A stretch of DNA of 64,000 bases from an uncultured Acholeplasmataceae bacterium. GTDB lineage: Bacteria; Bacillota_I; Bacilli_A; Acholeplasmatales; Acholeplasmataceae. Under the pieces are notes generated by a model. That model worked only from the letters and a program-made list of their open reading frames with translations. It did no database searches and had not been told where the DNA came from. The stretch spans positions 9,058 to 73,057 of the forward strand of contig CAUTMP010000003.1 of assembly GCA_963539755.1 (NCBI GenBank), given 5' to 3'. The translations under genes were made by a program, and so were the position numbers. Each line of letters opens with the position of its first letter. The stretch's first letter is position 1. Of the stretch, positions 19,029 through 38,422 are shown in pieces.

Positions 19029-19070
19029 ATTATTTCAAAAAATCCCTCTAAATTTGCAAAAAAATTTTAA

Positions 19071-19084
19071 TGTAAACGCTTACA
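19071..19084 (+). promoter_or_regulatory. cre-type (CcpA/LacI-family) operator TGTAAACGCTTACA
   Basis: Matches the consensus TGWAANCGNTNWCA at 14/14 positions and overlaps the -35. An identical copy lies at 54292-54305 on the minus strand. Confidence 0.6.
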
Positions 19085-19108
19085 TTTTAAAAATATAAGT
19101 GGTAAAAT
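19080..19108 (+). promoter_or_regulatory. promoter of the nuclease lipoprotein gene
   Basis: -35 TTACAT, 17-nt spacer, TGg-TAAAAT extended -10. Lies 31 nt upstream of the ATG. Confidence 0.6.
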
Positions 19109-19138
19109 ATTTAAGCAAGTGTAAAGGGGTTTTTATTT

Positions 19139-21163
19139 ATGAAAAAAGCATTTGTTTTACTGTTAGTTGCGATGTTGTCATTCTTTTTCTACTGTTGTAC
19201 AAAAGTTAATTTAAATACGATAATGAACGAAGTTAGTTTAAAGGACTACTCTAATAAAAGAGTCAATGCAGACATTCAAACTAATTTAGAAGAACTTAAA
19301 AACAAATATAAAGTAGACATTAAGGTTGAGTTTAACGACAACGAAATTGCAAGTTACGAAAACTCAACTATTAAGATAAACAAAAAATCAGAAGACAGCA
19401 CTTTAATTGTAAAAATTACGGTTAGCTATAAAAATCAACAATTTACTAAGTTGTTTAAGATTTTTATTGCCAAAATAGACAATACTTTACCTGAACCTTC
19501 GCCAACCCCCGATCCAAACCCACAACCAAATCCAAACCCACAACCAAATCCAAACCCACCAACTCCGTCCCCAGAGCCTGAACCAAATCCAACTCCTAAA
19601 AACCAGCATCCAGTAATTAAAGCAGTCAAAGCAAATGATAATGAAAAAGTTACCGCAATTGGCTGGATTGTTGCCTATTACTTAAACTTTGGCGTAGCTC
19701 TTCAAGACAGTACAGGCGGAATTACTTTAAAATCAGGTAAAAACGACTCAGTTAAGTTTAGTCAAATCCAAGCACTGGTTGGCAAGTACGTTCAAGTTTC
19801 CGGAACTCGCACTGCATACAATGGTTTAGTTCAAATTTCAAAAATTACTGAAATTAAAGAAATTTCAAATCCAGAAGAACCTTTTCCAACAGCCCTAGAC
19901 ATAACTAAACTAGACATTGCTAAACATCAGGCTAGACTACAAAGTACGCTAGTTAGCATCACTAACGCAAAGGTTAAAAGTTTTGAAAAAGATAAAAAAT
20001 TTGGAAACATCAACATTGTTTTTGAGTTTTTCGGTAAAGAACTTACCTTTAGATATGACAGCCGCGTAAATAAAGCCAAATGGGCTTCAATACTTGAAAA
20101 CTTAAAACCAGGTAAGTCTTATGACCTGACTAATTTAGTGTTTTCGTTTTACAACCAACCACAATGTTCAGTTTCAGAAACATTTGAGTTTAAACCGCAC
20201 GTTAACGAAAGTGGGAAAATAAATGTTTTCTTTGACTTAAACGGCGGAACTATTGCAGGCGGTGTTCAACCACAAATTATTGAAGTTGGACAAACTGCAA
20301 AAAACCCCGGCAGCCCAACTAAGCAAAACTATGAATTTTTAGGTTGGTCTAAAACTGGCAAAACCGACGATATTTTTAATTTCAATGCTAAGTTAACCGA
20401 AGACACAACACTTAAGGCTGTATATAAATACAACGGACCTGCTGAAGATTTAGACGAAGTAAATGGCTATTATTCTTCTGTAAAAGGTCTGGAAGGCGAT
20501 GCGCTTCGCGCTAGACTTAAACAAATCATAGACAAACCAGCAACTTCTTACGACACAGCACTAGAAGCTCTTAGAAAAGCAGACGAGTCTATCACAAACC
20601 CTGGTTATTTTTATTTAGCGTATACTGGAGACAGTCCAAGATATCAATATCGGCTAAACTCAAAGGACGGCTGGAACCGTGAACACGTTGTGCCAAACTC
20701 TAAATTAAAAGAACACGGTATTGCAAAAGGTGAACTTCACAACTTAAGAGCCTGTGATATTCAAACCAACTCAAGCAGGTCTAACTATCCATTTGTTGAA
20801 GGAAGCGGCGCAAATAAAGCGATTAACGGCAGCACCTACTATCCAGGTGATGAACATGTTGGCGATATCGCAAGAATTTGTCTGTATATGGCTTTGCGTT
20901 ATGACTTCCCACTTAAAAAGGTAGGTAAATTAGAGACTTTCTTAAAATGGCATAGGCAAGATCCGGTTAACGAATTTGAAAAAAGAAGAAACAATATTTT
21001 GGCTCAATATCAAAAAAACCGAAACCCTTTTATTGACAACCCCCAGTTTGTTGAAAAAATTTTCGGGAACATCAAAACTACTTCTTTAAATGAAGTTATG
21101 TATAGTCTTTACCTGCAATTAGTTAAACCGGTTTGTATGTTTGGACAAAAACTAGATTTATAA
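19139..21163 (+). CDS. surface nuclease: signal/lipobox, Pro-rich linker, OB-like domain, Flg_new-like repeat, C-terminal Endonuclease I-type domain
   Basis: 674 aa. N-terminal signal ends FFFYCC. Linker PEPSPTPDPNPQPNPNPQPNPNPP. Flg_new-type module VFFDLNGGT...YEFLGWSKTG...TLKAVY. The C-terminus has WNREHVVPNS, LHNLRACD..TNS.RSN, YYPGDEHVGDIARI and NRNPFIDNP, as in Endonuclease_1 family nucleases. Confidence 0.8.
   Translation: MKKAFVLLLVAMLSFFFYCCTKVNLNTIMNEVSLKDYSNKRVNADIQTNLEELKNKYKVDIKVEFNDNEIASYENSTIKINKKSEDSTLIVKITVSYKNQQFTKLFKIFIAKIDNTLPEPSPTPDPNPQPNPNPQPNPNPPTPSPEPEPNPTPKNQHPVIKAVKANDNEKVTAIGWIVAYYLNFGVALQDSTGGITLKSGKNDSVKFSQIQALVGKYVQVSGTRTAYNGLVQISKITEIKEISNPEEPFPTALDITKLDIAKHQARLQSTLVSITNAKVKSFEKDKKFGNINIVFEFFGKELTFRYDSRVNKAKWASILENLKPGKSYDLTNLVFSFYNQPQCSVSETFEFKPHVNESGKINVFFDLNGGTIAGGVQPQIIEVGQTAKNPGSPTKQNYEFLGWSKTGKTDDIFNFNAKLTEDTTLKAVYKYNGPAEDLDEVNGYYSSVKGLEGDALRARLKQIIDKPATSYDTALEALRKADESITNPGYFYLAYTGDSPRYQYRLNSKDGWNREHVVPNSKLKEHGIAKGELHNLRACDIQTNSSRSNYPFVEGSGANKAINGSTYYPGDEHVGDIARICLYMALRYDFPLKKVGKLETFLKWHRQDPVNEFEKRRNNILAQYQKNRNPFIDNPQFVEKIFGNIKTTSLNEVMYSLYLQLVKPVCMFGQKLDL
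19514..19558 (+). repeat. perfect 18-bp tandem repeat (CCAAACCCACAACCAAAT x2.5) encoding PNPQPN
   Basis: Read directly from the sequence. In frame, within the Pro-rich linker of the nuclease gene. Confidence 0.95.
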
Positions 21164-21181
21164 ATTAAATTTAAGTAATAT

Positions 21182-21210
21182 AAAAAGGCCTGAAAAAGGT
21201 CTTTTTATTT
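21182..21210 (+). terminator. terminator of the nuclease gene
   Basis: AAAAAGGCCT-GAAAA-AGGTCTTTTT (one G-U pair) followed by a T-run. Confidence 0.7.
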
Positions 21211-21574
21211 GAATATTTATGAGATATTTAACTAAAAGTTAATTGATAATTTTTTTCTAATTTTACAAGATATTTATATCTGAATTAAACAACAGTTTTC
21301 GTTCTTTTTTGCCTTTTAAAGCTGTATTTACTACTAACTTAATTGCTTTTATATCTATATTTTTAAAGGTAATATAAGAACACATTTTTGTCATTTTCTG
21401 GGTTGCGACCCCTTTTAATAAAATATTCGCGGTTTAAATTATTAAGCTTTGAATTTAAAATAGTGTGATTAAAGCAAATCACACAATAATTTAGACCAAC
21501 ACCTGTTAAAAAATACAGATAAAAGTTATGTTTGGGATTAGTTGCCTACTATCGTCAATAACTATAAAACCGCA

Positions 21575-21604
21575 TTGTTATGCCTTTTTTCAATTTTGTA
21601 TAAT
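21575..21604 (+). promoter_or_regulatory. candidate promoter for giant surface protein A
   Basis: TTGTTA, 18-nt spacer, TG-TATAAT extended -10. It would give a leader of about 230 nt. Other AT-rich look-alikes exist nearer the gene. Confidence 0.3.
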
Positions 21605-21839
21605 TTTTCAACTTTTGTTTTTATAGCCGTTTGCTATATATATATATGAATTGATACAGTAAATAGCGTTTTTAGTGAAAGACAGATGAGGTTTTTAACT
21701 GTAAAACACGCTAATTATGACATATTTAAGGAAACTAATGTTGTCAATATTAAACCATCTAAAATTTTACACAATCACTTTATATAATTTATATAAACAT
21801 ATCGCAATACTTTTGCATAACTTACACAAGGAGAAATAC

Positions 21840-24800
21840 ATGCAACCTGAACAAAATATGCAGTTTAATATGCTCCGCAAGAAAAGAAAAGGATTTTTAA
21901 TCCCAGCTTTATTTATTCTTGCATTTACTTCACTTATTTTACTTGTTATCTTTTTATTTTCACACCCTACAGTTTATTTTTCTAAAAATAGTGGTTTCAC
22001 TGAACACGACGCTGTTAAGGCTGGAAAAAATAAACTACGCTTTGTGGTGCCAGAAACTATAGATACAACAAAGTCTACTTTCATTTCTGTTAGAAAAGAA
22101 TGGTTCACAACTAGCAGACTAGGAACAATTGTTGACATTAAGGCAAAACCAGGTAAATACTTAGCCCTTGACTTTACAGACCGTCAACACGACTCTGAAG
22201 TTTTTACTATCTACACTAAGAACTGGTTTGGAATTAAAAAGCAGTATGACGTAATTGTTGATTACTCTAACTTCCTTCGTATCTTTTTCCCTGAGTCACA
22301 TGATGGTGCGATTCCTCGCAAACCAGAAATTCTTCCATATTCTAAACTACAAACTGAACACAAACACAAATACGAAGAACTTTACAAAATCAAAAGTTTC
22401 TATGCATACGACAAAGACGGAAAAATTGCTCCAGAGCCTATTCACAGAAGAGATGTTTTTTCTAAAGACATCGCTCAAGGCCGTGCATTTATTGTTAACA
22501 ACAGCACGCAAATTTCTTTAGTTTATGATTTCTTACTGCCAGGTATCTTTAAAAAACAAGCACAAAAAACTCAAGTTTACGACCTTGTTGACAAAACTGT
22601 TGGTAATGCAAAAACTCTAGACCCTGAAAAACAAGGACACGAAATTCAGTTTAATACTCCTCCTTTCTATATTTCTAAGTTCCTTGGTTGGTACTACATT
22701 GACCCAACTGGCAACCGAGTTGACTTAAAACCAGGTGAAGAGTTTAATATCCCCACTTGGGTAAAATCTGAACTTAGACTAATTGCTAAATATGATATTA
22801 CTGCTGATATAGATAAGTTAGCTCCAGCCCTTGACAAGCAAGGTCTGGTTGCGGTTTCTTACTTTGATGGCGTGCAAAGAGTATTTTTAGATATTGTCAA
22901 GAGAGGCACACCACTTCGTGAACACATCTACAATAAAGACGGATATGTTTATGAAGGTTGGTATAAAGACAGCGCTTTCACAAAAAAAGTAGACTTTAGT
23001 CAAGAAGTTGCAACTACTCATATTTCGCTTTACTTAAAGTCAATTTCTCAAAACCAACCACAACCCGAAAAACCAACTAAATATCACACTATTACTTTTA
23101 AAACTCCAGATGGTGCATCTCAACTTTCTCCAGCAAAAGTAGCGCGCGACCAAAAACTTGACGCAAATTATGCAGCGCCAAACCGAGTTTCAAAAGTTTA
23201 TCCAGACGGCAAACTCGAAGAGCTTGACTATTGGACAATTTGGGATCCTGTTAATAACCAAGACACAGGTGTTAAGTTTGACTTTAATACTCCAATTACC
23301 AGCGACCTTGTACTGTATGCTCATTTAAGACCATATAAAGCACCAGACTCAGAACGTCCAGTAAATTTCAAAGTACTTGACCATATTCAAAACCAAACAC
23401 TTTACGACAAAACTTTAACTGCAGTTAACAACAAAATTCAAGACGCAGATAAAGCAGAAATCAAAGGTATTTTGGGAAATGCTCCTGCTGATGTTGAAAC
23501 TCCAATGGGCACATATCGCTTCAAAGGTTGGTATTTAAATGGTGACATCAATTCTCCATTTTATATAGACGACGCACTTCCTAAAAACATAAAACGTTTT
23601 GAAATTCACGCAGTTTATGACTTTGAGCCAAACGACAAAGTACCAAACCCACAAGATCCTGACAACCCACTTCCTCTAGACCCAAGTTTAGTTAAACTAA
23701 CTTTCTTAACGCCTGAGCGCACTGTGCTTGCAGTTCAAACTCAAGAAAAGGGCAAGGCATACGCGGGAACTCTGCCTACTATTTCTAAACTAGGCTACGT
23801 ATTTAAACACTGGGCTTACTTTGAAGGCAACGAAGTTAAAGACCAATTTGATACTACTGCTGTTTTAAATGAGAACAAGGTGCTATATCCTGTGTTTGAA
23901 AAAGATCCAAACGCAAACCTTGAAAACGAAGAACTCAACACAGTTAAGATCTACAATCCACTACTTAAATCAACTCAAGTCTTAAAAGTTAAAAAAGGTG
24001 AACTACTTGGAGTAGACACAAACGCCTACACCACTACTATTGAAGACAAAGAATACGTGTTTGACAAGTTCACTAAAGAAGATGGTTCTACTTTTGATCA
24101 CTTAACTACGCAAATTACTAAGGACTTAAACTTTACTGTTAATCTAAAAGAAAAAGTGCTTGATTGCTTTAAGTCAATTGACACAAAAATTAGTGATCCT
24201 GTTCAAGGAAAAGTTTTATATGAAGGCAAAATCCGCGTCAAAGATGGCCAAATTTACGCACCAGACCGCGCGAAACTACAGGCTATCCTTGACACAGTTG
24301 GCGCAGACATTGACGGCGCTATGGGTAAACATCAATTTAAGGGCTGGTATTTAGATGGAGACACTAATTCTCCGTTTACAGTTAACGACCAAATTGATCA
24401 AAATACTGCTCGTCTAGATATTCAGGCAGTTTATGACTTTGAGCCAAACGACAAAGTACCAAACCCACAAGATCCTGACAACCCACTTCCTCTAGACCCA
24501 AGTTTAGTTAAACTAACTTTCTTAACGCCTGAGCGCACTGTGCTTGCAGTTCAAACTCAAGAAAAGGGCAAGGCATACGCGGGAACTCTGCCTACTATTT
24601 CTAAACTAGGCTACGTATTTAAACACTGGGCTTACTTTGAAGGCAACGAAGTTAAAGACCAATTTGATACTACTGCTGTTTTAAATGAGAACAAGGTGCT
24701 ATATCCTGTGTTTGAAAAAGATCCAAACGCAAACCTTGAAAACGAAGAACTCAACACAGTTAAGATCTACAATCCACTACTTAAATCAACTCAAGTCTTA

Positions 24801-27800
24801 AAAGTTAAAAAAGGTGAACTACTTGGAGTAGACACAAACGCCTACACCACCACTATTGAAGACAAAGAATACGTCTTTGATAAGTTTACAAACAAAGACG
24901 GCTCTGACTTTGACCACTTAACAACTGCGATTACAAAAGATCTTGAGTTAACTGTTCACTTAAAAGAAAAAGAACTTGCTGGCTTTAGGCAAATTGACAT
25001 TAAAATTATTGACCCTGTTCAAGGTAAAGTTTTATTTGACGGAAAAGTGCGTGTTAAAGACAACCAAATATATGCACCAGACCGCGCAAAACTACAGGCT
25101 ATCTTAGACACAGTTGGTGCAGACATTGACACTGTACTTGGTAAATACCGCTTTAAAGGTTGGTATTTAAGCGGAGACATCAACTCTCCGTTTACAGTTG
25201 ACGGCAATTTAGATCCAAACACTACTAACTTAACAGTTAAGGCAGTTTACTACTTTGAAGATAACAATAAAGTACCAAATCCAGATAACCCAAGTGACCC
25301 ACAACCTCTTGACCATGCTCTAATTAAAGTTACTTTCCTTTCAGACAGCTACTCAGTTATCTCTGTTCAAACAAGTAAAAAAGGAAAAGTTTTTGACGGA
25401 ACCCTTCCAAATGTTGAAAAACGTGGCTACATCTTTAAACACTGGGTTTACTTTAAAGCAGGAGTAGTTGGCTCTATTTACAACGAACAAGACGTGCTTA
25501 CTGAAAACACAGTTCTGTATCCTGTCTTTGAAAAAGATCCAAGCGAACCTGAGCCAAAAAATACTGCTAAAGTCACTATGCAAAGTGAATTGCTTGGACA
25601 AAGTGAACATAGGTTTGTCAAAAAAGGTACAAAACTAGATTTAGATCCTCAACAATTTAATACTAAAGTTGGCAAATACTTGTATAAGTTCAAACGTTTC
25701 GTTGACGAAAACGACAATACTTTTGACTACAAAACTAAGCCAATTTTTGAAGATATTACTTTAAAAATAGAATACGAAAAAACTGAGCCGAAGGCCAAGT
25801 ACACTATTAAACACGTATTTGAAGGGGTAGAAGGACAAATCCCTGAAACAACTCAAACTGTAGAAAAAGAAACTACTGTGGGCAGTGAAATAACTGTAGA
25901 CAGCAGTGATGGTCTGCCTGGTCTTGAACACGGCTTTGATTTAGTTGACTCAACTGAAACTAAAGTAGTTAAAGCAGATGGTTCTACTGAGTTTATCTTA
26001 AACTACAAACGAAAAGAGTTTACCGTAACTTACCAAGCAAACTACCACAATCAATTCCCAGGAACTGCGGTTTCAAATGAACCTCAAACTCACAAAGTTA
26101 AGTATCAAGAGAAAATCAAAGAACCAAACCCTGCACCAAAACTAGAGCGACATGGCCGCACATATACCTTTAAACACTGGCAACTTGAGTCTACTATGAA
26201 CGGAGTTTATAGTGAGCAAAGTCCTTATAACTTCAACACCAGAGTTAACCGCAATGTTGATTTAGTGGCTTACTTTGAAGAAAAAATTGAAAAAGTTAAC
26301 TACAAAATCGTACATATGCTAGAAAAACAAGGCGAAGACAGTGCTCTTAACGGACAATACGACAGAATCGAAGAACTTCAGCAAGATAAAAAAGTAGAAG
26401 ATGGCGCTACTTACCAAGATTACTCAGCACTAGACTCTAACTTATACGAAAAAGATTTAACACACCCAGATAATCTGCTTAATGCACAGCTTAATACTGG
26501 CGACAACACTACCGAAGTTCGCCAATACTATAAGTTAAAAGAAACTACTGTTAACTTCCAAAAAACTGCAGGTATTGAAAGTTTTGATTCTGCTGAAACT
26601 ATCGTGGTAAAGAAAACCCGCAAAATTGACTTACCTAACTACAACTTAAAGGCAAACTACGAGTTTACAGGTTGGAGTTTAAGTCAAAACGGACCAAGTC
26701 AGGCTAAGTTTATCGCAAGTGGCGACAGTATGGATATTTACGCGAACACTAGAATTCTTGAATCTAGAGTTAAATACACTATTTTAACTCAAAGAGCAGA
26801 TGGTGGATATGACACAACTTACGAGACTAAAAAAGCCTTAATTGGTTCAGTTCACACAGCAAGTTATGCAAATCCAAATAGTTCTATTTACCATGACCCT
26901 CGTTTCAACCCTACTCAATTTACTGTGAGCGCAAATGAAGACGAAAACCAAGTCACTGTAACAATTGACAGAAATGTCTACACAGTTACTTTTGAAGTTA
27001 TTGGTCATTCTGGTCAAATCCTGAATAGAGTAATTAGGCATGGTGCTACAATTGGAGCGATTGATGAAAGCCAGTTTTCAGTAGATGGAAATGGTATTAT
27101 AAAGACTGAACTAGATGGTATAGAAAAAACTAAGGAAGAAATTGAAAGTTTCTTAGTTCAAAAAAACCATAAAGTAACTTTGCATATTGGCAGACTTATT
27201 AAGAAGTTTGGTAAATACCCACAAACTAGAGTTGACAATCCTGCAGGAATTCGTCATATAAAAGACGAAGTACACGAACTTAGGTTTAACTCAAAAGGCA
27301 ATAACTACACTATGCAGTTTACTCGCAGTTACTGGCAAGACAACGCCGACAATAAATATGAAAAATACAATGGTCAATACTTTAAAATTGAAGATGTTAT
27401 TTTTGTTAAAATTCCTAAACTAAACACCTGGTATACCGACAAAATAATTGACTTTTCACCTTTTAACATTAGTAACATTAATTATCCTGATGATGCGAAA
27501 CCTGAGCGCTCTATTTTTAAATCACTTGTTGAAGATATTGGAAAAGTTTTAGGCGATGAAGTTCACATGCCTACTTATGATAGCGGCGATTTTAAATTTA
27601 AACCAGCCTATGACGCAGGTATACAGTCTCGGTTATTAAAAGAATCAACTGACTATGCCAAAGCAATTTTAGGTAGTGAAGATCGTAATATTAAAAAATA
27701 TCGTGGTTTTGATTTAACCCCTATTGTTGTTGAAGGAAATAGCTTTTCTTACCGAAAAAGGTACCACCAGCACTGGTGGCTCGCTACTCAGATAGACTAC

Positions 27801-27893
27801 CCTACTGCTCTCGTTAACCTCGTCAGAAACGACAACATCTTGGGCAGTGCTGGCGTGTCCAATGTTTTCGGTGTAGTGGTTTGCATTAGGTAG
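21840..27893 (+). CDS. giant membrane-anchored surface protein A (2017 aa): Flg_new-like and MucBP-like repeats, shared N- and C-terminal modules
   Basis: Start moved to ATG 21840, 6 nt after AAGGAG. The ORF-track start at 21717 has no RBS and adds a non-conserved extension. One N-terminal TM (FLIPALFILAFTSLILLVIFLF) and many Y.F.GWY...LYA.. modules. Ends VFGVVVCIR. Paralog of 28284-32837. Confidence 0.85.
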   Translation: MQPEQNMQFNMLRKKRKGFLIPALFILAFTSLILLVIFLFSHPTVYFSKNSGFTEHDAVKAGKNKLRFVVPETIDTTKSTFISVRKEWFTTSRLGTIVDIKAKPGKYLALDFTDRQHDSEVFTIYTKNWFGIKKQYDVIVDYSNFLRIFFPESHDGAIPRKPEILPYSKLQTEHKHKYEELYKIKSFYAYDKDGKIAPEPIHRRDVFSKDIAQGRAFIVNNSTQISLVYDFLLPGIFKKQAQKTQVYDLVDKTVGNAKTLDPEKQGHEIQFNTPPFYISKFLGWYYIDPTGNRVDLKPGEEFNIPTWVKSELRLIAKYDITADIDKLAPALDKQGLVAVSYFDGVQRVFLDIVKRGTPLREHIYNKDGYVYEGWYKDSAFTKKVDFSQEVATTHISLYLKSISQNQPQPEKPTKYHTITFKTPDGASQLSPAKVARDQKLDANYAAPNRVSKVYPDGKLEELDYWTIWDPVNNQDTGVKFDFNTPITSDLVLYAHLRPYKAPDSERPVNFKVLDHIQNQTLYDKTLTAVNNKIQDADKAEIKGILGNAPADVETPMGTYRFKGWYLNGDINSPFYIDDALPKNIKRFEIHAVYDFEPNDKVPNPQDPDNPLPLDPSLVKLTFLTPERTVLAVQTQEKGKAYAGTLPTISKLGYVFKHWAYFEGNEVKDQFDTTAVLNENKVLYPVFEKDPNANLENEELNTVKIYNPLLKSTQVLKVKKGELLGVDTNAYTTTIEDKEYVFDKFTKEDGSTFDHLTTQITKDLNFTVNLKEKVLDCFKSIDTKISDPVQGKVLYEGKIRVKDGQIYAPDRAKLQAILDTVGADIDGAMGKHQFKGWYLDGDTNSPFTVNDQIDQNTARLDIQAVYDFEPNDKVPNPQDPDNPLPLDPSLVKLTFLTPERTVLAVQTQEKGKAYAGTLPTISKLGYVFKHWAYFEGNEVKDQFDTTAVLNENKVLYPVFEKDPNANLENEELNTVKIYNPLLKSTQVLKVKKGELLGVDTNAYTTTIEDKEYVFDKFTNKDGSDFDHLTTAITKDLELTVHLKEKELAGFRQIDIKIIDPVQGKVLFDGKVRVKDNQIYAPDRAKLQAILDTVGADIDTVLGKYRFKGWYLSGDINSPFTVDGNLDPNTTNLTVKAVYYFEDNNKVPNPDNPSDPQPLDHALIKVTFLSDSYSVISVQTSKKGKVFDGTLPNVEKRGYIFKHWVYFKAGVVGSIYNEQDVLTENTVLYPVFEKDPSEPEPKNTAKVTMQSELLGQSEHRFVKKGTKLDLDPQQFNTKVGKYLYKFKRFVDENDNTFDYKTKPIFEDITLKIEYEKTEPKAKYTIKHVFEGVEGQIPETTQTVEKETTVGSEITVDSSDGLPGLEHGFDLVDSTETKVVKADGSTEFILNYKRKEFTVTYQANYHNQFPGTAVSNEPQTHKVKYQEKIKEPNPAPKLERHGRTYTFKHWQLESTMNGVYSEQSPYNFNTRVNRNVDLVAYFEEKIEKVNYKIVHMLEKQGEDSALNGQYDRIEELQQDKKVEDGATYQDYSALDSNLYEKDLTHPDNLLNAQLNTGDNTTEVRQYYKLKETTVNFQKTAGIESFDSAETIVVKKTRKIDLPNYNLKANYEFTGWSLSQNGPSQAKFIASGDSMDIYANTRILESRVKYTILTQRADGGYDTTYETKKALIGSVHTASYANPNSSIYHDPRFNPTQFTVSANEDENQVTVTIDRNVYTVTFEVIGHSGQILNRVIRHGATIGAIDESQFSVDGNGIIKTELDGIEKTKEEIESFLVQKNHKVTLHIGRLIKKFGKYPQTRVDNPAGIRHIKDEVHELRFNSKGNNYTMQFTRSYWQDNADNKYEKYNGQYFKIEDVIFVKIPKLNTWYTDKIIDFSPFNISNINYPDDAKPERSIFKSLVEDIGKVLGDEVHMPTYDSGDFKFKPAYDAGIQSRLLKESTDYAKAILGSEDRNIKKYRGFDLTPIVVEGNSFSYRKRYHQHWWLATQIDYPTALVNLVRNDNILGSAGVSNVFGVVVCIR
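23610..25790 (+). repeat. in-frame tandem array with an exact 816-bp (272-aa) period: copies at 23611, 24427 and 25243
   Basis: 23610-24034 and 24426-24850 are identical base for base (425 bp). The remainder of units 1 and 2 is about 75-80% identical by eye. The third unit is diverged and partial. Confidence 0.95.
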
Positions 27894-28072
27894 TCTCTTG
27901 ACTGTTTGTACAGGTACTTGCATTTATTTTCATTTTAGAGATTTAACCACTGATTTAACCCCATAAAAAATAATCGCTTAATTTATACAATCAACTTTTT
28001 GAAAATATAAAAAGCTTTTCAAAAGCAAGCAAACAAGTTTTTTGAATCATATAATTTAAACTAAATTTAAAA

Positions 28073-28113
28073 TTACTCTACTTCACTTTGCATATTAGAG
28101 TGAAGTAGAGTAA
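28073..28113 (+). other. long perfect stem-loop between the two giant genes
   Basis: TTACTCTACTTCACT (TT) GCATATT (AG) AGTGAAGTAGAGTAA: 15 bp Watson-Crick plus 2 further pairs, with a 7-nt loop and no following T-run. Possible terminator or RNA-stability element. Confidence 0.6.
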
Positions 28114-28283
28114 GAATATCAATAGTTTTAAAAATCAAAACATAAAAACCAGAAAGTATTTAAATCACTTTTGTTTAGTATTTATTAAAAATCCCACATC
28201 TAAAGTTAAAACAAAGGTAATTTAAATATTTTAATTGCTAAAAAACCACATATAATACTTTTTTAAAAAAGAGAGGCTTAAAT

Positions 28284-31200
28284 ATGCTAATTAATAAAAG
28301 AAAAAGTTTTATAATTTCGGCTTTGTTTATCTTTGCCTTAATTTTAACTGCTTTGTTTTTAATTCTTTCATTTATGCACCCCACACTTCATTTGACTAAA
28401 ACCAGCGGTTTTAGCCAAAAAGACTTAAAAAAACAGTCAAATAAACTACGCTTTGTAGTGCCAGATACTATTGACACCACCAAATCTACCTATATTTCAA
28501 TTAAAAAAGAGTGGTTTGAGAGTTCTGGCCTTGGCAAAATTACAGAAATCAAAGCCAAACCAGGCAAGTACTTAGCCCTGGACTTTACAGACCGACAATA
28601 CGACTCTGAAGTCTTTACAATTTACACAAAAAACTGGTTTGGAGTTAAAAAACAACACGACATAATTGTAGACTACTCAAACTATTTGCGTGTATTTTTT
28701 CCAGAGTCTTACGATGGCGCTGCTCCTCGCAAACCCATAATTTTTCCGTATTCTAAACTAGAGTCTGACTACAGAGCGAAACTAGAAAACCTTCGCAGAT
28801 ACGACTCTTTTTTTGCCTACGACAAAAAAGGCTTAGTTGTATCTACTGCTGTTCACAGTGAAGAAGTTTTTAATAAGCAAAACGCACAAGGTCGCGCATT
28901 TATTGTTAACAACAACACCCGCATTTCTTTAGTTTATGATTTTGTGCTACCTGGTATTTTTAAAGACCAAACACAAAAAACCCAAGTTTACGAGCATATC
29001 GAAAAAGCAGTTGGTAAAGCCAAAGCCTATGACCCTGCAAATCAAGGTCTGGAAATTAAGTTCAATACCCCGCCTTTTTATATAACTAAGTTCTTAGGGT
29101 GGTATTATACAGACCCTGCGGGCAATCGTGTTGACTTACTGCCAGGACAAGAGTTTCAAATCCCTACTTGGGTGAAATCTGAACTTAGACTAATTGCCAA
29201 ATATGAAATGACTGCAGACACAAGTAAATTAGGCCCAGCCTTAGATAAGCAAGGTCTGGTTTCAGTTTCTTATTTTGATGGACCTGAGCGCGTATTTTTT
29301 GACATTGTAAGAAAAGGCACGCTACTAAAAGAGCGAGTTTACGCAAAACTAGGATACGCTTATCAAGGTTGGTACACTGACCCTGAACTAACTAAAAAAG
29401 TAGATTTCAAAAAAGACATAGCAGATACTCACACTGTGCTTTACTTAAAATCTAAAGAAAGACCAGAAACACCTTCGCGAACTCACACTGTAAACTTCAT
29501 TACTAGAACTCACGCAAATCAATTACTACCACTTACCGTTAAACACGGTGAAAAACTTGACTCAAACTACTCACTTCCAACTACTGTGTCTTATCTAGAT
29601 AGTGAAGGTGATTTACACGAACTAGATTACTGGAACTTAGTTGACCCAATTACTGGCACTAAAACTAAATTTGATTTTAGTACTCAGATTACTGAAGACA
29701 TTACACTTGAAGCCGTACTTAAAAAAAGACTAATTCCAAACTCTAAGTACACCATAAAGCGATACTTTGAATCCGTTGAAAATCCAGGTGAGTTTATTGA
29801 AGACATATCTAAACAAGAAGAGGTCATAGGTCAGGTTCCAGGTCAAGAAGTTGAATTACTTCCGCATCAATACAGAGCCCCAGAAGGCTTTAATTTACTT
29901 AATTCAACTGTTTTAAAAAAGACAATTGAAAGAGACGGAACCACAACATTTGAACTTAAATACTCACGTAACCGCTATACAGTTACTTACGAGGTTAATT
30001 ACAACGGCAATCACTTTGCCGGAGTAACTACTTCTGACCAACCTAGTCAGACTGTTCTATATGAGGGTAAAGCAACTAAGCCAACAACCCCTTCACTTAC
30101 TAAACTAGGATACACATATACATTTAAACACTGGCAACTTAAAGATGAAATGGGCAATTCCTACAAAGAAACTACTGAATTTGATTTTGAAAACACCAAA
30201 ATCACTAAAAATACAACTTTGGTAGCTTATTTTGAAGAAACAGCAAATTTAGTTAACTACACAATTAACCATGTACTTCCTGGTTTAAATAATGCAGTCG
30301 GAGAAACAAAACAAGAAATCAAACAAGCGACCGTAGATACTAGTTTAACTATTGATGAAAACAATGCTAACCCTGCTTATCTAGCGGGTTTTGAACCGAT
30401 TGTAAACAGTGAAACTAAAAATATTAAAGCAGACGGATCTACTGTATTTACTATTAACTATCGTCGCCGTAAGTTTACAGTAACTTACGAAGTAAATTAC
30501 AAAGGCAACCATTTTAATGCAACTCCATCTTTACAAGACTCTGAAACCGTTGAGTATGAAGGCACTGCTACTAAACCAAGCGCTCCTACTTTAACCAGAG
30601 TTGGCTATACCTATACATTTAAACACTGGCAACTAAAAGACGAAATGGCTTATCAACAGGGCGCAGAGTTTGATTTTGAAAACACTAAAATCACTAAAAA
30701 TACAACTTTAGTTGCTTATTTTGAAGAAACACCAAATTTAGTTAACTACACAATTAACCACGCACTTCCTGGTTTAAATGGTGCAGTTGGCGAAACAAAG
30801 GCGGAAATCAAACAAGCAACTGCCGACACTAGTTTAACTGTCAGCGAAACTAATGCTAACCCTGCATATCTTGCAGGTTTTGAGCCGATTGCAGGTAGCG
30901 AAACTAAAAATATTGAAGCAGACGGATCTACTGTATTTACTATTAACTATCGTCGTCGTAAGTTTACAGTAACTTACGAAGTAAACTACCAAAACCACTT
31001 TGAAGGTACACCATCTGTTCAAAATCCTGAAACTGTTGAGTATGAGGCTAATGCTACTCAGCCACCTATGCCAACAATTACAAAACACGGTCGTACTTAC
31101 ACTTTTAAACACTGGCAGTTAAAAGATGAGACAGGTAACTCATACAATTTAGCCACTCCTTTTGACTTTAGCACTAAAATAACTAAAAATACTGAACTAG

Positions 31201-32837
31201 TTGCCTACTTTGAAGAGACGATTGATAAAGTGAACTATAAAGTAGTTCATTATCTTGAAAAAACTGGTGAAGACAATACTTTGAACGGACAATATGACAG
31301 AGTAGATGAGTTAATGCAAGACCAAAAAGTAGAAGATGGCGCAACTTACCATGATTACTCAGCACTAGACTCTAACTTATATGAAAAAGACACATCACAT
31401 TCAGATAATCTATTAAACTCACAACTCACAACTGGCGACAACACAACTGAAGTTCGTCAATACTATAAGTTAAGAGAAATAAGCGTCAAGTTTGAAAAAA
31501 CTGTGGGCATTGCCAGCTTTAAAACAGCAGAAACAATTATGGTTAAGAAAACCAGAAAAATTACTTTACCTGAGTTTAACTTAAAAGATACATATAACTT
31601 TCTAGGCTGGAGTTTAAGCGAAAACGGTCAAGTTCAATCTAAGTTTATAGCAGGCGATGAAAACATTAAAATATACGCTCAAACTGAACTGCAAAACAGA
31701 GAAATCATCTACACTGTTAAAACTCAAAAATCAGATGGTAGTTATACCGTAAACACCGAGACTAAGAGCGAAAAAATTGGCACAAACCATACAGTTAATT
31801 ACGCAAACCCAGACAATACTATGTATCAAAACCCAGTATACAGTGTGGATAATTTGACTGTAAGCGCAGACGAAACTCAAAACAAGGTAACCGTTACTAT
31901 TAACCGCAAAACTTACACAGTGACTTATCAAGTTGAAGGACATACGTCTACTATTCCAAGTAAAACATTCAGACATGGCGAAAAACATGGCGAAATTGAT
32001 GAAAGTAAGTTTGAAGCAGATGAACTTGGCATTGTTAAGTTAGAACTAGATAATAGTCAAAAAACTAAAGAAGAAATCAAAAATTTATTAGTTACAAAAA
32101 ATCATATAATTAAGGTTTATGTTGGAGAACCCACTAAAATTGTTGGTAAATACCCACAAACTAAGGTTGATAGTCCTGCTGGAATACAATTTGAGAGGGA
32201 TGATGTTCGTGAACTTAAATTTAATTCTAAGGCTGTTAACCACACAGTAAATTTCACTCGCAAATACTATAAAGACAGTTCAGGCAATAGATACGAAATG
32301 TATAATGGCAATTACTATAAGTTTGAAGATGTTGAGTTTGCAAAAATTCCTAAACAAAGAACTTGGTTTACTAAACACATTATTGACTTTTCACCATTCA
32401 ACATTTATTACAATGGTTACTCTGATAACGGCAAACCTGAGCATTCTATTTTTAAGGCTATGGTTGAAGAAATCGGGAAAATTATCGGTGAAAATACTTA
32501 TATGCCTACATATGATGATGGAGATTTTAGTGTTAAACCTGCTCTGGGTATTACTAATGAAAACATCAAATTACAACGAGATTCTACTGACTATGCCAAA
32601 GCAATTTTAGGTAATTTTGGTGGTTATCAAACTAGCTATTATCGTGGTGTTGACTTAAATCTTTTTGCAGAATCTGGCAATTTGATTGCTAATTACCACT
32701 GGCGCAGCAGATGGCAATGGTGGCTCGGTACTCAGTATCCTCGCTCTAACCCAAGCGCGTACTATATCCGCAGAGGTGGACTACTGAACGACAGCGATAC
32801 CTACTCCGTTTTTGGTGTAGTAGTTTGCATTAGGTAG
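28284..32837 (+). CDS. giant membrane-anchored surface protein B (1517 aa), paralog of A
   Basis: RBS AGAGAGG. N-terminal TM (FIISALFIFALILTALFLILSF). The N-terminal ~480 aa and C-terminal ~530 aa are colinear with protein A. Ends VFGVVVCIR. Confidence 0.88.
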   Translation: MLINKRKSFIISALFIFALILTALFLILSFMHPTLHLTKTSGFSQKDLKKQSNKLRFVVPDTIDTTKSTYISIKKEWFESSGLGKITEIKAKPGKYLALDFTDRQYDSEVFTIYTKNWFGVKKQHDIIVDYSNYLRVFFPESYDGAAPRKPIIFPYSKLESDYRAKLENLRRYDSFFAYDKKGLVVSTAVHSEEVFNKQNAQGRAFIVNNNTRISLVYDFVLPGIFKDQTQKTQVYEHIEKAVGKAKAYDPANQGLEIKFNTPPFYITKFLGWYYTDPAGNRVDLLPGQEFQIPTWVKSELRLIAKYEMTADTSKLGPALDKQGLVSVSYFDGPERVFFDIVRKGTLLKERVYAKLGYAYQGWYTDPELTKKVDFKKDIADTHTVLYLKSKERPETPSRTHTVNFITRTHANQLLPLTVKHGEKLDSNYSLPTTVSYLDSEGDLHELDYWNLVDPITGTKTKFDFSTQITEDITLEAVLKKRLIPNSKYTIKRYFESVENPGEFIEDISKQEEVIGQVPGQEVELLPHQYRAPEGFNLLNSTVLKKTIERDGTTTFELKYSRNRYTVTYEVNYNGNHFAGVTTSDQPSQTVLYEGKATKPTTPSLTKLGYTYTFKHWQLKDEMGNSYKETTEFDFENTKITKNTTLVAYFEETANLVNYTINHVLPGLNNAVGETKQEIKQATVDTSLTIDENNANPAYLAGFEPIVNSETKNIKADGSTVFTINYRRRKFTVTYEVNYKGNHFNATPSLQDSETVEYEGTATKPSAPTLTRVGYTYTFKHWQLKDEMAYQQGAEFDFENTKITKNTTLVAYFEETPNLVNYTINHALPGLNGAVGETKAEIKQATADTSLTVSETNANPAYLAGFEPIAGSETKNIEADGSTVFTINYRRRKFTVTYEVNYQNHFEGTPSVQNPETVEYEANATQPPMPTITKHGRTYTFKHWQLKDETGNSYNLATPFDFSTKITKNTELVAYFEETIDKVNYKVVHYLEKTGEDNTLNGQYDRVDELMQDQKVEDGATYHDYSALDSNLYEKDTSHSDNLLNSQLTTGDNTTEVRQYYKLREISVKFEKTVGIASFKTAETIMVKKTRKITLPEFNLKDTYNFLGWSLSENGQVQSKFIAGDENIKIYAQTELQNREIIYTVKTQKSDGSYTVNTETKSEKIGTNHTVNYANPDNTMYQNPVYSVDNLTVSADETQNKVTVTINRKTYTVTYQVEGHTSTIPSKTFRHGEKHGEIDESKFEADELGIVKLELDNSQKTKEEIKNLLVTKNHIIKVYVGEPTKIVGKYPQTKVDSPAGIQFERDDVRELKFNSKAVNHTVNFTRKYYKDSSGNRYEMYNGNYYKFEDVEFAKIPKQRTWFTKHIIDFSPFNIYYNGYSDNGKPEHSIFKAMVEEIGKIIGENTYMPTYDDGDFSVKPALGITNENIKLQRDSTDYAKAILGNFGGYQTSYYRGVDLNLFAESGNLIANYHWRSRWQWWLGTQYPRSNPSAYYIRRGGLLNDSDTYSVFGVVVCIR
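29745..31229 (+). repeat. three tandem ~163-168-aa units (MucBP-like plus Flg_new-like), period 489-504 bp
   Basis: Unit starts are near 29745, 30249 and 30738. Units 2 and 3 are about 85% identical at DNA level by eye (LVNYTINH.LPGLN...YTFKHWQLKDE...LVAYFEET). Confidence 0.9.
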
Positions 32838-33168
32838 TCTCTTGACTGCTTGGTGTAGGTACTCTCTTTCATTTCTGTTTTAGAGATTTTCCCACTGCAT
32901 GGCTTTCTCATGTGAAACAATTGTTTATTTTATTTTAACGCGAGTAGACGTTATTGCTACAAATTAACCTGACCACTATTAGTTTGTTAAATCTATTTGT
33001 AAAAAATACGCAATTATAAATTTACAACCAAAACATACACTAAATGAGTTAAATTTGTGTCTTGCTTATTATTCTTAATTTTACAAATTATCATATAGTG
33101 TATGTGGTTTAGAATTCTTTACTTTGATATTGTAGTAAAATAGGTAATTTTTAAATAAAATGTCTAAT

Positions 33169-33199
33169 AAAAAAAGCCGATGGAAACATCGGCTTTTCT
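33169..33199 (-). terminator. terminator of rplM-rpsI
   Basis: The minus strand reads GCCGATG-TTTC-CATCGGC followed by TTTTTTT. Confidence 0.85.
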
Positions 33200-33242
33200 G
33201 TGTGTTGTATGTAGTTGGTTTGTAAAAAACCTAAACTCAAAA

Positions 33243-33635
33243 CTAACGTTTTGAAAATTGAGGTGCACGGCGAGCTTTACGAAGACCGTATTTTTTGCGT
33301 TCTTTAATGCGAGGGTCTCTGGTAATTAGTCCAGCTGGTTTTAGAATTTGTCTAAGTTCAGGGTTTAGTTCAAGTAAGGCTCTGGTAATTCCAAGGCGGA
33401 TTGCACCGGCCTGGCCAGAAATTCCACCACCGTTAACATTTGCAGAAACATCGTATTGGCTTTCTAAGTTAGTTAAAGCGAGTGGTTGCATGACGTCTAG
33501 GCGAACAGCCGCAGAGGCAATATAGTTGCTAAACTCACGACCATTTACTAAAAACTTACCTGTACCTTTAGTTAAGATAACTCTTGCAACTGAGTTTTTA
33601 CGGCGACCAGTTCCTCTAAATTGTACTAATTGCAT
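33243..33635 (-). CDS. rpsI: 30S ribosomal protein S9
   Basis: 130 aa. [12 protein letters not shown] ... [18 protein letters not shown] ... [18 protein letters not shown]. Confidence 0.97.
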
Positions 33636-33637
33636 AA

Positions 33638-34066
33638 TTATTTAACCTCCAAAACAGTTGGTTTTTGTCCGCTGTGTCTGTGCTCTTGACCAGCATAGAC
33701 AAAAAGTTTTTTGCCAATTTGGCGACCTAGTCTAGTTTTTGGAAGCATTCCAAGGATTGCTTTTTCAACTAATTTAGTTTGGTCTTTTGCGTGTACATCG
33801 CGAGCCGCGATGGCTTTTAGTCCACCTGGATAGTCAGTGTGGTGATAGTAAATTTTGTCTGTCCATTTTTTGCCAGTTAATTGAATTTTTGCAGAGTTAA
33901 TAATTACTACGTAGTCTCCGCAGTCTACGTTTGGTGTGTAGTCAACTTTGCCTTTGCCTTTCAAAATAGAAGCAACGAAAGTAGCCAGGCGACCAAGAGT
34001 TTTACCGCTTGCGTCAACTAAATACCATTTTTTTGAGTTATTTGGTTTTGCCATTAGTGTTTTCAT
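33638..34066 (-). CDS. rplM: 50S ribosomal protein L13
   Basis: 142 aa. [22 protein letters not shown] ... [12 protein letters not shown]. Confidence 0.97.
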
Positions 34067-34146
34067 AAAAAATATTGAATCTCCTTTTTTTAATTAAGTT
34101 AACTTTTTAAAAAAGGGCTAACTCGGAAATTAAATGTACCTTTAAA

Positions 34147-34175
34147 ATAATACCAAAAAAGGCTTTTTATGTCAA
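34147..34175 (-). promoter_or_regulatory. near-consensus sigma-70-type promoter of rplM-rpsI
   Basis: The minus strand reads TTGACA, 17 nt, TATTAT. It would give a leader of about 75 nt before the rplM ATG. Confidence 0.7.
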
Positions 34176-34223
34176 AAATAAAGCAGTTTGAAAAACCATT
34201 TACGCTGTTTTTCAAACTGCTTT
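34175..34223 (-). terminator. terminator of the transglutaminase-like gene
   Basis: 17-bp perfect stem AAAGCAGTTTGAAAAAC/GTTTTTCAAACTGCTTT with a 10-nt loop. The minus-strand T-run (ATTTTTGACA) merges into the rplM -35. Confidence 0.85.
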
Positions 34224-34235
34224 AAACAACCTGAT

Positions 34236-37097: not shown

Positions 37098-37140
37098 GCT
37101 CCCTTTTTGTTTATTATAAGTGCTTGAAAAAACATTTTTA

Positions 37141-37165
37141 AAAAAACGAGGTCGCCCTCGTTTTT
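37141..37165 (-). terminator. terminator of pfp (bidirectional shape)
   Basis: A-run, ACGAGG-TCGC-CCTCGT, T-run. Confidence 0.8.
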
Positions 37166-37201
37166 AAAATGTATTTTAGTTTAAAAATTAACTGTATTTA
37201 T

Positions 37202-38422
37202 CTATTTTTTAAATTGGAAGTATTTAGGCAACCCATTTTCAAAAGGTGTTTTCATTTCACCTTGAATTAGCGGTTCGGCGTATTCAACGAAGTCATCAGT
37301 CAAACCTGTGTGGTCTTTTTTAATCCACTCAAGTGGCACCCTCTTTTCACTATTTTTAATGCGAGAAAGGGAGACTACACCGTATTCTAGTTTGTAAATC
37401 TGACCAGGTACACGTTTAACTGCAATCATTTTATCAGTATGTCCCATAATAGCCGCAGTTGCACCAAACACTCCTGAGTTGTAAGCCTCTTGCACGTCTG
37501 TTTTACTTTGAAGGTGAGCACTTGAACGCTGCATTGTAGAAAGTTCAATGGCTCTGGATTTAACATCGCAAACTTTCTTAAGTTCGTTTGCCAAAATTTG
37601 GGCAACTCCGCCTAGTTGAGTGTGAGCAAATGCATCTTTTGTGGCTTGTTTGTAGAGTTCAGCAATATAGTTGCCTTCTGCGTCTTTAATACCTTCTGAA
37701 ACTACCACAAAAACATGCGGTTGTTTTTTTAATACTCTTTGCACATCGGCGATAAACTCTTGAATTGAAAAAGTTTGTTCAGGTAGATAGAAAAGATCAG
37801 GGCCAAGTCCTGCCTTTTTGGCAAGCATCGCACTGGCTGTCAGCCAGCCTGCGTTTCTACCCATAATTTCTACAATATTGATAGAAGGAGTGCTATATAC
37901 ATTGGCATCTTGTTTTAATTCCATTAAAGTAGTTGCTATGTATTTAGCCGCAGAGCCATAGCCTGGGGTGTGGTCAGTTAAATCTAAATCGTTGTCTATA
38001 GTTTTAGGAATACCGATTACCCTGCATTCATACTTCTTGGCCTGCAAGTATTGAGAAATCTTGTAGGCACTGTCCATTGAGTCGTTGCCACCAATGTAGA
38101 AAAAGTAGCGAATGTTGTATTTCACAAAAGTCTCAAGGATTTTTTGATAGTCTGGGTGTTGTAGGTCTTTGTCTAGTTTGTATCTGCAACTACCTAGTGC
38201 AGACGCTGGGGTGTTTTTTAGAAGTTCAAGTTGTTGTTTATCTTGAGCACGAATGTTAATCAGCCAACCGTTAATAGCGCCAACTATCCCGTTTTCCGCT
38301 CCGTAAATATTTTCAATAAATTCGTATTTTGCACATTCTTCATATATTCCTAGAAGTGAAGAATTGATAACACTGGTAGGTCCACCAGATTGTCCAATTA
38401 ATACAGATCCTCTTAATGCCAT
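37202..38422 (-). CDS. pfp: PPi-dependent 6-phosphofructokinase (short type)
   Basis: Start taken at the second ATG (38422), 7 nt after GAGAGG. Motifs are GQSGGPTSVIN, GGNDS (Asp at the G/D discriminator position), PKTIDNDL (Lys discriminator) and MGR. Confidence 0.8.
   Translation of the reverse strand: MALRGSVLIGQSGGPTSVINSSLLGIYEECAKYEFIENIYGAENGIVGAINGWLINIRAQDKQQLELLKNTPASALGSCRYKLDKDLQHPDYQKILETFVKYNIRYFFYIGGNDSMDSAYKISQYLQAKKYECRVIGIPKTIDNDLDLTDHTPGYGSAAKYIATTLMELKQDANVYSTPSINIVEIMGRNAGWLTASAMLAKKAGLGPDLFYLPEQTFSIQEFIADVQRVLKKQPHVFVVVSEGIKDAEGNYIAELYKQATKDAFAHTQLGGVAQILANELKKVCDVKSRAIELSTMQRSSAHLQSKTDVQEAYNSGVFGATAAIMGHTDKMIAVKRVPGQIYKLEYGVVSLSRIKNSEKRVPLEWIKKDHTGLTDDFVEYAEPLIQGEMKTPFENGLPKYFQFKK

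Follow-up and report, generated by a model that had tools for sequence, protein, structure and literature searches.

Several described systems of surface proteins resemble the subject of this study, a tandem pair of giant genes, A and B, in a 64,000-nucleotide (nt) stretch of DNA from an uncultured Acholeplasmataceae bacterium (assembly GCA_963539755.1, contig CAUTMP010000003.1, positions 9,058 to 73,057 of the forward strand). This whole stretch is called the window, and positions below are those of the window unless a comparison locus is named. In mycoplasmas, the variable Vsa, Vlp, Vsp and Vpma proteins are lipoproteins with short unstructured repeats that are switched by invertases or promoter homopolymers. 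In the phytoplasmas, which also belong to the Acholeplasmatales, Imp is an N-terminally anchored protein, and VmpA/B are adhesins with large tandem repeats and a C-terminal anchor. The MgpB/MgpC genes of Mycoplasma genitalium vary within a strain, with the silent partial copies of MgPar as donors (PMC2169797). The periscope concept describes stalks of variable length that project a binding domain (PMC8201768), and proteins with Flg_new domains have been read as adhesin-like and as typical of host-associated microbes (PMC9723798).

Genes A and B lie in tandem and belong to a multigene family that is restricted to one lineage, a clade of wall-less, uncultured Acholeplasmataceae, and the papers searched contain no description of such a family in the Acholeplasmataceae. 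Each protein is composed of a predicted N-terminal membrane anchor, two N-terminal modules (N1 and N2), a set of repeat cassettes of 272 or 165 amino acids (aa; U272 and U165, respectively), and two C-terminal modules (C1 and C2). We consider it probable, with a good deal of reserve, that the two proteins are fibrillar surface adhesins or ligand binders of the periscope type, with a fixed base, a variable stalk of beta-grasp domains, and a recombining C1-C2 head. The features of the two genes, with their strand and the evidence for each, are:

21840 to 27893, + strand: gene A, 2017 aa, in the order anchor, N1, N2, three U272, one U165, C1, C2 (open reading frame, ribosome-binding site, tblastn module map, ortholog P0029)
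21870 to 21980, + strand: gene A, start rich in lysine and arginine followed by a hydrophobic helix, the predicted membrane anchor (sole stretch with Kyte-Doolittle hydropathy >1.6)
21963 to 22772, + strand: gene A N1, orphan membrane-proximal domain (70% identical to B N1; no Pfam, PDB or NCBIfam match)
22773 to 23354, + strand: gene A N2, Flg_new-type beta-grasp domains (best Pfam Flg_new stretch at residues 365-398; Foldseek match to 2y5p)
23460 to 25907, + strand: gene A, three tandem 272-aa (816-nt) U272 cassettes starting at 23460, 24276 and 25092 (repeat finders, BLAST, tblastn map)
23610 to 24034, + strand: gene A, conversion tract of 425 nt, identical to 24426-24850 and in register between cassettes 1 and 2 (DNA comparison)
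25806 to 26309, + strand: gene A, single 165-aa U165 cassette (36-47% identical to the B units)
26325 to 27218, + strand: gene A C1, proximal C-module, beta-grasp/Flg_new-like (58% identical to B C1)
27219 to 27890, + strand: gene A C2, orphan tip domain ending in VFGVVVCIR, the segment replaced among orthologs (module map; no fold or sequence match)
28284 to 32837, + strand: gene B, 1517 aa, in the order anchor, N1, N2, three U165, C1, C2 (open reading frame, tblastn module map)
28374 to 29183, + strand: gene B N1, orphan domain (AlphaFold2 model with pLDDT ~70-89, mostly beta)
29184 to 29753, + strand: gene B N2, Flg_new-type domains (Pfam, module map, Foldseek)
~29766 to 31244, + strand: gene B, three tandem ~165-aa U165 cassettes with a 489/495-nt period (repeat finders, module map)
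31260 to 32153, + strand: gene B C1 (tblastn map; Flg_new at E = 4.7e-5)
32154 to 32834, + strand: gene B C2, tip domain (AlphaFold2 model with pTM 0.79)

With the periscope and fibrillar adhesins SasG/Aap, Rib/alpha C and Sgo_0707 (PMC8201768, PMC9704523, PMC9210967), A and B share a stalk of tandem folded domains, a domain number that differs between close relatives via recombination in near-identical repeat DNA, and a distinct non-repeat domain at the far end. The polarity is opposite, in that A and B have an N-terminal anchor helix and a C-terminal putative head, whereas periscope proteins have an N-terminal head and a C-terminal LPXTG wall anchor. A and B also differ in their wall-less host, in their large multi-domain cassettes (165 and 272 aa), in their orphan end domains, and in that head alleles are exchanged too, and the 'highly similar repeats' of periscope proteins are found in part of the array only, in U272 copies 1 and 2. 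Flg_new matches above the cut-off, the fold of 2y5p and the presence of many paralogs per genome link A and B to the Flg_new/InlB B-repeat proteins of Listeria, Bacteroidetes, Firmicutes and gut methanogens. Unlike those proteins, A and B have no leucine-rich-repeat internalin domain and no GW or LPXTG anchor, and their Flg_new units lie inside larger cassettes between the family-specific N1 and C2.

The Mycoplasma variable lipoproteins are, like A and B, multigene families of exposed Mollicute proteins that vary in size through tandem repeats. In contrast to Vsa, Vlp, Vsp and Vpma, A and B have no lipobox, have folded cassettes of 165-272 aa, and have only a (TA)n tract upstream of A. As in MgpB/MgpC, the putatively exposed part of the protein is rebuilt by recombination with paralogous sequences and the rest of the gene is constant; for A and B, the donors would instead be full-length paralogs or come from other lineages, and only comparisons between genomes reveal exchange. 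Imp and VmpA/B resemble A and B as exposed proteins of wall-less relatives carried on a single membrane helix, but they are much smaller and show no sequence relation to A and B, searches with the family having returned just proteins from metagenome-assembled genomes (MAGs) of Acholeplasmataceae. The principle as such is known, but the host lineage, the reversed polarity, the end domains and the swapping of heads are unfamiliar.

Architecture of genes A and B

An earlier, sequence-only reading of the window had described two adjacent same-strand genes of 2017 and 1517 codons, each opening with a basic stretch and a single transmembrane helix and neither possessing a lipobox or an LPXTG motif, a description that is borne out by the open reading frames, the hydropathy profiles and a motif scan. 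The ATG of gene A at 21840 is preceded by a strong ribosome-binding site (AAGGAGA, 5 nt before the start), giving 2017 codons, and the ortholog of gene A among public proteins, P0029 (92% identical), has the identical start and the identical length of 2017 aa. A longer reading frame from 21717 was rejected, since both the ribosome-binding site and the start call of P0029 favour 21840. The single hydrophobic stretch of each protein lies directly after the K/R-rich start (at residues ~16-48 of A and ~6-37 of B), and residues 2-31 of B, which are homologous to the anchor segment of A, are modelled as one long helix by AlphaFold2 (AF2). No lipobox is found in either protein, there being no Cys among the first 60 residues, and LPXTG (as LP.[TSA]G) is found nowhere in A or B, both of which end in VFGVVVCIR. 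The lack of sortase or wall-binding signals is as expected because acholeplasmas have no cell wall. Cys is scarce throughout, with 2 in the 2017 residues of A and 1 in the 1517 of B. The Cys three residues from the C-terminus (codons 27882-27884 and 32826-32828) is kept in nearly all family members; it may form a disulfide between molecules, be modified, or serve as a structural residue in a last strand of lectin-like type.

BLASTP aligns A and B in two colinear blocks (E = 0). The N-terminal block pairs residues 11-~505 of A with 1-~490 of B; across its first ~420 residues, stretches of 120 aa are 63-77% identical, and beyond them identity falls to ~40-46%. The C-terminal block pairs residues 1495-2017 of A with 993-1517 of B at ~51% overall. 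The last ~530 residues are thus conserved as had been described, but at a lower level than the N-terminal end rather than a similar one. By module, A and B are 70% (N1), 55% (N2), 58% (C1) and 51% (C2) identical. All the shared strings that the sequence-only reading had quoted are present, including the common C-terminus, and the central repeats are as it had described, with three 272-aa units and one ~165-aa unit in A and three ~165-aa units in B; U272 was not found in B by fragment comparison or in the tblastn module map. The ~20 nt after the two stop codons are also nearly identical (TAGTCTCTTGACTG[T/C]TTG; 27885-27912 and 32829-32856), and the duplication unit therefore reaches past the coding sequence.

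The stalk, made of beta-grasp domains of the Flg_new / InlB B-repeat type, is the only recognisable part of the two proteins. Flg_new (PF09479) scores 114.6 bits in A and 92.9 bits in B against a Pfam cut-off of 27, supporting the label 'Flg_new-like' that the repeats had been given, and TIGR02543 also matches A. Flg_new stretches are present in single cassettes, in N2 and in C1. The AF2 model of B residues 1-489 (mean predicted local distance difference test score, pLDDT, of 76) begins with a long helix and continues mostly as beta structure, and is matched by Foldseek to the InlB B-repeat structure 2y5p (69 columns, root-mean-square deviation 1.6-1.8, TM-score 0.78-0.80). The other best PDB matches of the whole model, to linear tetra-ubiquitin and streptokinase, are probably driven by N2. 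The companion label 'MucBP-like' has no support from Pfam: MucBP (PF06458) was not detected in the whole proteins at E <= 0.01 or in single cassettes at E <= 10, and Mub-RV is only a distant fold-level match to the N-module model (Foldseek, E = 0.012).

N1, the approximately 225 residues after the helix, has no Pfam match even at E <= 10 and none in NCBIfam or among PDB sequences, whether single sequences, profiles or individual members were used. This agrees with the earlier inability to place the first ~250 residues of the N-module in any family. When N1 was compared exhaustively with 1.84 billion representative proteins by HMMER, just 12 matched, all of them family members and all with E <= 2e-13. 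Profile-profile comparison of N1 with the family's own cassettes and N2 using hhalign detected no similarity, and N1 can therefore not be claimed as a degenerate B-repeat.

C2 is the second orphan domain. A word-indexed profile search with C2 retrieved 39 proteins, all with E <= 2e-73 and nothing weaker up to E = 1. Pfam and NCBIfam gave only noise, and PDB sequence searches (again with single sequences, profiles and individual members) were empty. The AF2 model of C2 has a predicted template-modelling score (pTM) of 0.79 and is confident for residues 12-99 (pLDDT >90), with a long beta-sheet. Across the family the core of the head is aromatic-rich, with invariant Y/W/F positions, and also has invariant polar residues (R, D, E, T). 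At the C-terminal end (WWLGTQ...GVVVCIR), DUF6273 (E = 0.19-0.74 in two to three members) and Fib_succ_major (E = 0.2 in one member) appear below threshold. We take lectin-like C-terminal domains of the DUF6273/Fib_succ_major/DUF1566 type to share with C2 the elements [LM]PT..D/E and WW/YW and a final RC[VI]R-like strand, a resemblance (to [LM]PT..D, WWL and G.VVC[IV]R) that serves only as a lead. Foldseek gave no match of this type for C2, that half of the model being of low confidence.

The invariant polar residues of C2, together with the almost invariant Cys three residues from its end, would also suit surface-displayed enzymes in which C2 is a catalytic domain of an unrecognised family, such as a nutrient-scavenging hydrolase, presented on a stalk. 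The same genome is predicted to display enzymes on Flg_new stalks, with Endonuclease_1 combined with surface-type regions at 19139-21163 and 44971-47253, which fits such an arrangement. However, no catalytic family matched C2 by sequence or fold, the wholesale replacement of alleles at 50% identity described below would be unusual for a housekeeping enzyme, and a single genome can carry several copies that differ in their C2 allele. We regard an enzymatic head as quite improbable.

Variation of the cassettes and of the head

Copies 1 and 2 of U272 in gene A are 86% identical at the DNA level, with copy 3 being ~42-54% identical in protein. The perfect tract of 425 nt between copies 1 and 2 is embedded in flanks of 72-80% identity. 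In orthologs of gene A, the corresponding perfect run is 44, 62, 76, 258, 295, 366, 396, 422, 461 or 692 nt long, and in P0029 the two copies differ across the tract that is identical in the window. This pattern is best read as repeated, independent gene conversion, and unequal crossover within such a tract gives exactly the two-copy form of U272. Within gene B, identity among the U165 units is 66-74% where they align, in the C-terminal two-thirds.

An N-module profile was used to scan one genome from each GTDB species, and all the genomes used for comparison are short-read MAGs, in which repeats may collapse. Loci syntenic with the window are 90-96% identical to it in DNA. L006 is colinear with window positions 18261-38000 (19.7 kb) at 95.6% identity and has the same cassette counts. 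U272 is present three times in gene A orthologs from most genomes and twice in L007 and L043. Gene B orthologs have three U165 cassettes in the window, L006 and L007, and four in L035, L009, L010 and L011; L035 is nearly as close to the window as L006, yet has four. Copy-number variation of both cassettes in syntenic loci was an expectation of the sequence-only reading, as was the pairing of constant ends with variable cassettes, which mapping with the six modules establishes as a rule across the whole family, in at least 70 loci. The extra U165 cassettes in L010 and L009 are 86-88% identical to their neighbours and therefore represent a real additional copy, not an assembly collapse.

Because the comparison loci come from MAGs built with reads shorter than the identical tracts of 425-692 nt, assembly artefacts might be suspected behind the repeats and their variation, the more so as two of the four-copy arrays have neighbouring units that are 100% identical. 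Against this, numerous independent assemblies show the architecture, and their reading frames of 1500-2060 codons are intact. The repeat copies are mostly diverged, the additional units in L010 and L009 are distinct sequences, and the mosaic C2 alleles are unique sequences with colinear DNA on both sides. An artefactual origin is accordingly very hard to credit.

The C2 alleles of gene A orthologs form a mosaic. N1 is 96-99% and N2 95-99% identical between A and these orthologs, whereas C2 is 98, 96, 84, 79, 77, 62, 53, 52 or 51% identical. In sliding comparisons of the orthologs, ~95% DNA identity gives way to 50-65% at about 26990-27190 and is not regained until ~28075, ~200 nt beyond the stop codon. 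Synonymous divergence (dS, Nei-Gojobori) is 0.4 to >1.2 in C2 versus 0.08-0.2 in N1, and the ratio of nonsynonymous to synonymous divergence (omega) is 0.3-0.4 in C2. The elevation of dS at an omega of just 0.3-0.4 indicates C2 alleles older than the surrounding gene, and the divergent segments are thus older alleles that recombination brought in, rather than the outcome of rapid point mutation alone. Between the window and L006 or L035, dS is 0.007 in C2 and ~0.1 elsewhere, which implies that these loci share a recent C2 segment. At greater distance, a subfamily with an N1 ~40% identical to that of B has a C1 up to 81% and a C2 63-68% identical to those of B, closer than the equivalents in A. 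This deep incongruence between N1 and C1/C2 likewise points to import of C2 by recombination. N1 evolves with an omega of 0.03-0.11 among gene A orthologs, near 0.05, and presumably contacts something unchanging, for instance the membrane or one of the cell's own partners.

A sharp drop in identity between orthologs at the start of the C-terminal domain, in proteins that are giant and rich in repeats, is also what would be seen in a polymorphic-toxin or contact-dependent-inhibition system, with a conserved delivery part and a variable C-terminal toxin. Yet the C2 alleles are all homologous, with common motifs from YPQT to GVVVCIR and never less than ~29% identity. No open reading frame of immunity-protein size lies downstream of A or B, and no toxin family was matched in Pfam scans, PADLOC and toxin-specific libraries not having been scanned. 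The homology of the C2 alleles and the lack of immunity frames after A and B led us to reject a polymorphic toxin, which we consider extremely unlikely.

A third gene is present between A and B in L007 and L010. The sequence before it, its N-module and its first cassette resemble B at 85-91%, while identity to B is 68% in C1 and 56% in C2. The chimeras that the sequence-only reading had envisaged have a counterpart in this gene, with its B-like 5' half and its foreign C1 and C2. That reading had also proposed the conserved ends of A and B as a substrate for homologous recombination. The DNA of the two genes is 50-84% identical per 100 nt, with no long identical tracts, so direct exchange between A and B seems less likely than exchange within arrays or among closer paralogs, and the efficient substrates would be the intragenic repeats and the closer paralogs instead.

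The family and the surroundings of the locus

The scan identified 73 distinct loci, all in MAGs of uncultured Acholeplasmataceae (~19 MAGs), with up to nine N1-bearing genes per MAG. Searching public assemblies for the exact sequence of gene B gave no match. When all loci were mapped with the six modules an invariant frame emerged, N1-N2-[0 to at least 16 cassettes]-C1-C2, with most copies being intact open reading frames and protein sizes ranging from 886 to >3850 aa. Members without cassettes (L028, L055, L058) have 886-914 aa, and those with at least 16 (L046, L048, L049, L051) have >3840 aa and run off the fetched DNA. Each of the latter four loci contains two consecutive giant genes within the 10 kb on either side, the downstream gene with at least 16 cassettes and the upstream gene with at least 12. 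Additional cassette types are indicated in many members by gaps of ~780-1000 nt that match none of the module queries. In one MAG the family sums to 15,518 aa, or about 46 kb of coding DNA.

The C2 profile search also brought up a subfamily of ~655-aa proteins (P0041, P0044, P0046, P0049, P0051, P0052, P0055). These have a different N-terminal membrane helix (MKKISQNKLYLYFSILVIIVAILAIILG...) and one short Flg_new-like domain followed by C1-C2, and lack N1, N2 and cassettes. Since C1-C2 is here joined to a different anchor, it is the part common to all members; it appears to be their working part, with N1-N2 as one of at least two kinds of base.

As many as nine paralogs in one genome, graded in length from 886 to >3850 aa, would also be compatible with a protective surface coat, a steric shield in place of a wall or capsule, in which the variation of C2 is driven by phages or host factors that use C2 as a receptor. 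The very strong purifying selection on N1 would be expected of lateral or membrane contacts in such a coat, the swapping of old alleles at the exposed tip fits the dynamics of receptor evasion, and steric blocking is possible for periscope proteins (PMC8201768). The conserved aromatic-rich core of the head, with its invariant Y/W/F positions, looks more like a binding module, and we judge a coat function to be unlikely, though less so than an enzymatic one.

The window reads cleanly in translation table 11. Two homologs from metagenomes have an in-frame TAG, in L001 at 11363-11365 (ELDY-stop-NLVDP) and in L005 at 11594-11596 (TEV-stop-LTPDK). Sense codons occupy these sites elsewhere, for the W of ELDYW in gene B and for the E of TEVELTPDK in the intact L068. 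Reassignment of the stop codon was rejected, as many copies, including those in the window, read W or E at these positions. L001 is also frameshifted at its C-terminus, and its interruption recurs in a second sample (L002). The TAG-containing copies in L001 and L005 have the appearance of pseudogenised genes or of errors. AAA_14/DUF4143 ATPase genes (L001 489-5384 and 7730-8614), DDE transposases and a reverse transcriptase flank the family member in L001/L002, which is therefore in a mobile or defence-rich region. The window has an AAA_14/DUF4143 ATPase gene of its own at 42903-44162 (+).

Two non-coding features accompany the gene pair:

21635 to 21647, + strand: (TA)6 microsatellite ~195 nt upstream of the gene A start (length differs among orthologs)
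27894 to 28283, no strand assigned: A-B intergenic region with no credible open reading frame; contains an inverted repeat, TATAAT at 28251-28256, and the ribosome-binding site GAGAGG before B

The (TA)n tract has conserved flanks and an n of 6 in the window and L038, 7 in L006, L010, L012 and L037, and 9 in L036. It is located between a TTGCTA/TTGATA hexamer and a TGnTA(C/T)AGT extended -10-like site, and could shift promoter spacing in 2-nt steps, leading to phase variation of gene A. No recombinase gene was seen next to the A/B locus. The intergenic inverted repeat has perfect 12-bp arms (ACTCTACTTCAC ... GTGAAGTAGAGT, at 28075-28086 and 28100-28111) and a 13-nt loop, and is unlike a classical terminator because no T-run follows it. 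Rfam gave no match across the locus.

A and B are surrounded by housekeeping genes (prs, pth, mfd, folD, folC, rpsI/rplM, pfk, uvrB, metG). The Endonuclease_1 genes at 19139-21163 (+) and 44971-47253 (-) encode predicted extracellular nucleases, the former of which has a Flg_new domain and a proline-rich region and lies directly upstream of gene A. Positions 49382-54256 (-) encode another surface-type protein, of 1624 aa and with the domains Flg_new, Flg_new_2 and aBig_2; having no match to N1, C1 or C2, it belongs to a different family. The 953-aa product of 34236-37097 (-) has a core resembling transglutaminases and weakly matches MAG6410 (49.5 bits against a cut-off of 450), a family of mycoplasma transglutaminase-related lipoproteins.

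Proposed build and its meaning

In the periscope-type build that we favour, an uncleaved N-terminal signal-anchor (a positive-inside helix) would hold the protein in the membrane, with the remainder outside the cell. N1 would be the strongly conserved membrane-proximal base, N2 and the cassettes would form an extended, rod-like stalk of beta-grasp domains of the Flg_new / InlB B-repeat type, and C1-C2 would be the distal head and most likely the ligand-binding (adhesive) module. The number of cassettes would set the length of the stalk and the height of the head, and would change by unequal crossover and gene conversion in near-identical repeat DNA. C2 would be diversified by replacement of whole alleles, via recombination with paralogs or other lineages, which may vary specificity or antigenicity. 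A variable binding head would in this way be presented at different distances from the wall-less cell, with a possible benefit from either kind of variation.

Several observations weigh against this build. C2 resembles no known binding fold, its best Foldseek matches having E = 0.07 (PDB) and E = 0.13 (BFVD), and about a fifth of its model is of low confidence, with segments 138-159 and 209-225 unreliable. The omega of C2 is below 1 overall and so gives no proof of positive selection. With the exception of U272 copies 1 and 2, neighbouring repeats share only 42-80% identity, below the values of classical periscope proteins. The differences in copy number are between species-level short-read MAGs, not within one population, and the extra U165 cassettes of L035 and L011 are 100% identical to their neighbours, which short reads cannot place reliably; the fourth cassette in these two loci is either a very recent duplication or an unresolved assembly.

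A bolder possibility, and one that we hold to be doubtful, is that N1 and C2 are new folds and that these non-pathogenic, wall-less Acholeplasmataceae possess a hitherto unseen surface-variation system of three layers, consisting of the cassette-determined length, a binding specificity determined by the swapping of ancient C2 alleles among up to nine paralogs and between lineages, and on/off switching of gene A by (TA)n. If true, this would amount to a combinatorial repertoire for attachment to hosts or particles, whose logic would be comparable to that of antigenic variation in pathogenic mycoplasmas although the components differ.

To our knowledge nothing is known about how uncultured Acholeplasmataceae attach to hosts or particles, and the non-phytoplasma members of the group are poorly studied. 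In practical terms, the family's repeats explain broken or mis-called genes in short-read assemblies of this clade. N1 and C2 are two domains without detectable relatives and so are targets for structure determination and ligand discovery. The contrast between a frozen base (N1) and a recombining head provides a natural experiment on which part of the protein meets the outside. More broadly, the variable-length stalk of wall-anchored Gram-positive adhesins would have a counterpart, with reversed polarity, in a wall-less lineage, and the family is an obvious candidate for the main interface of these cells with their surroundings.

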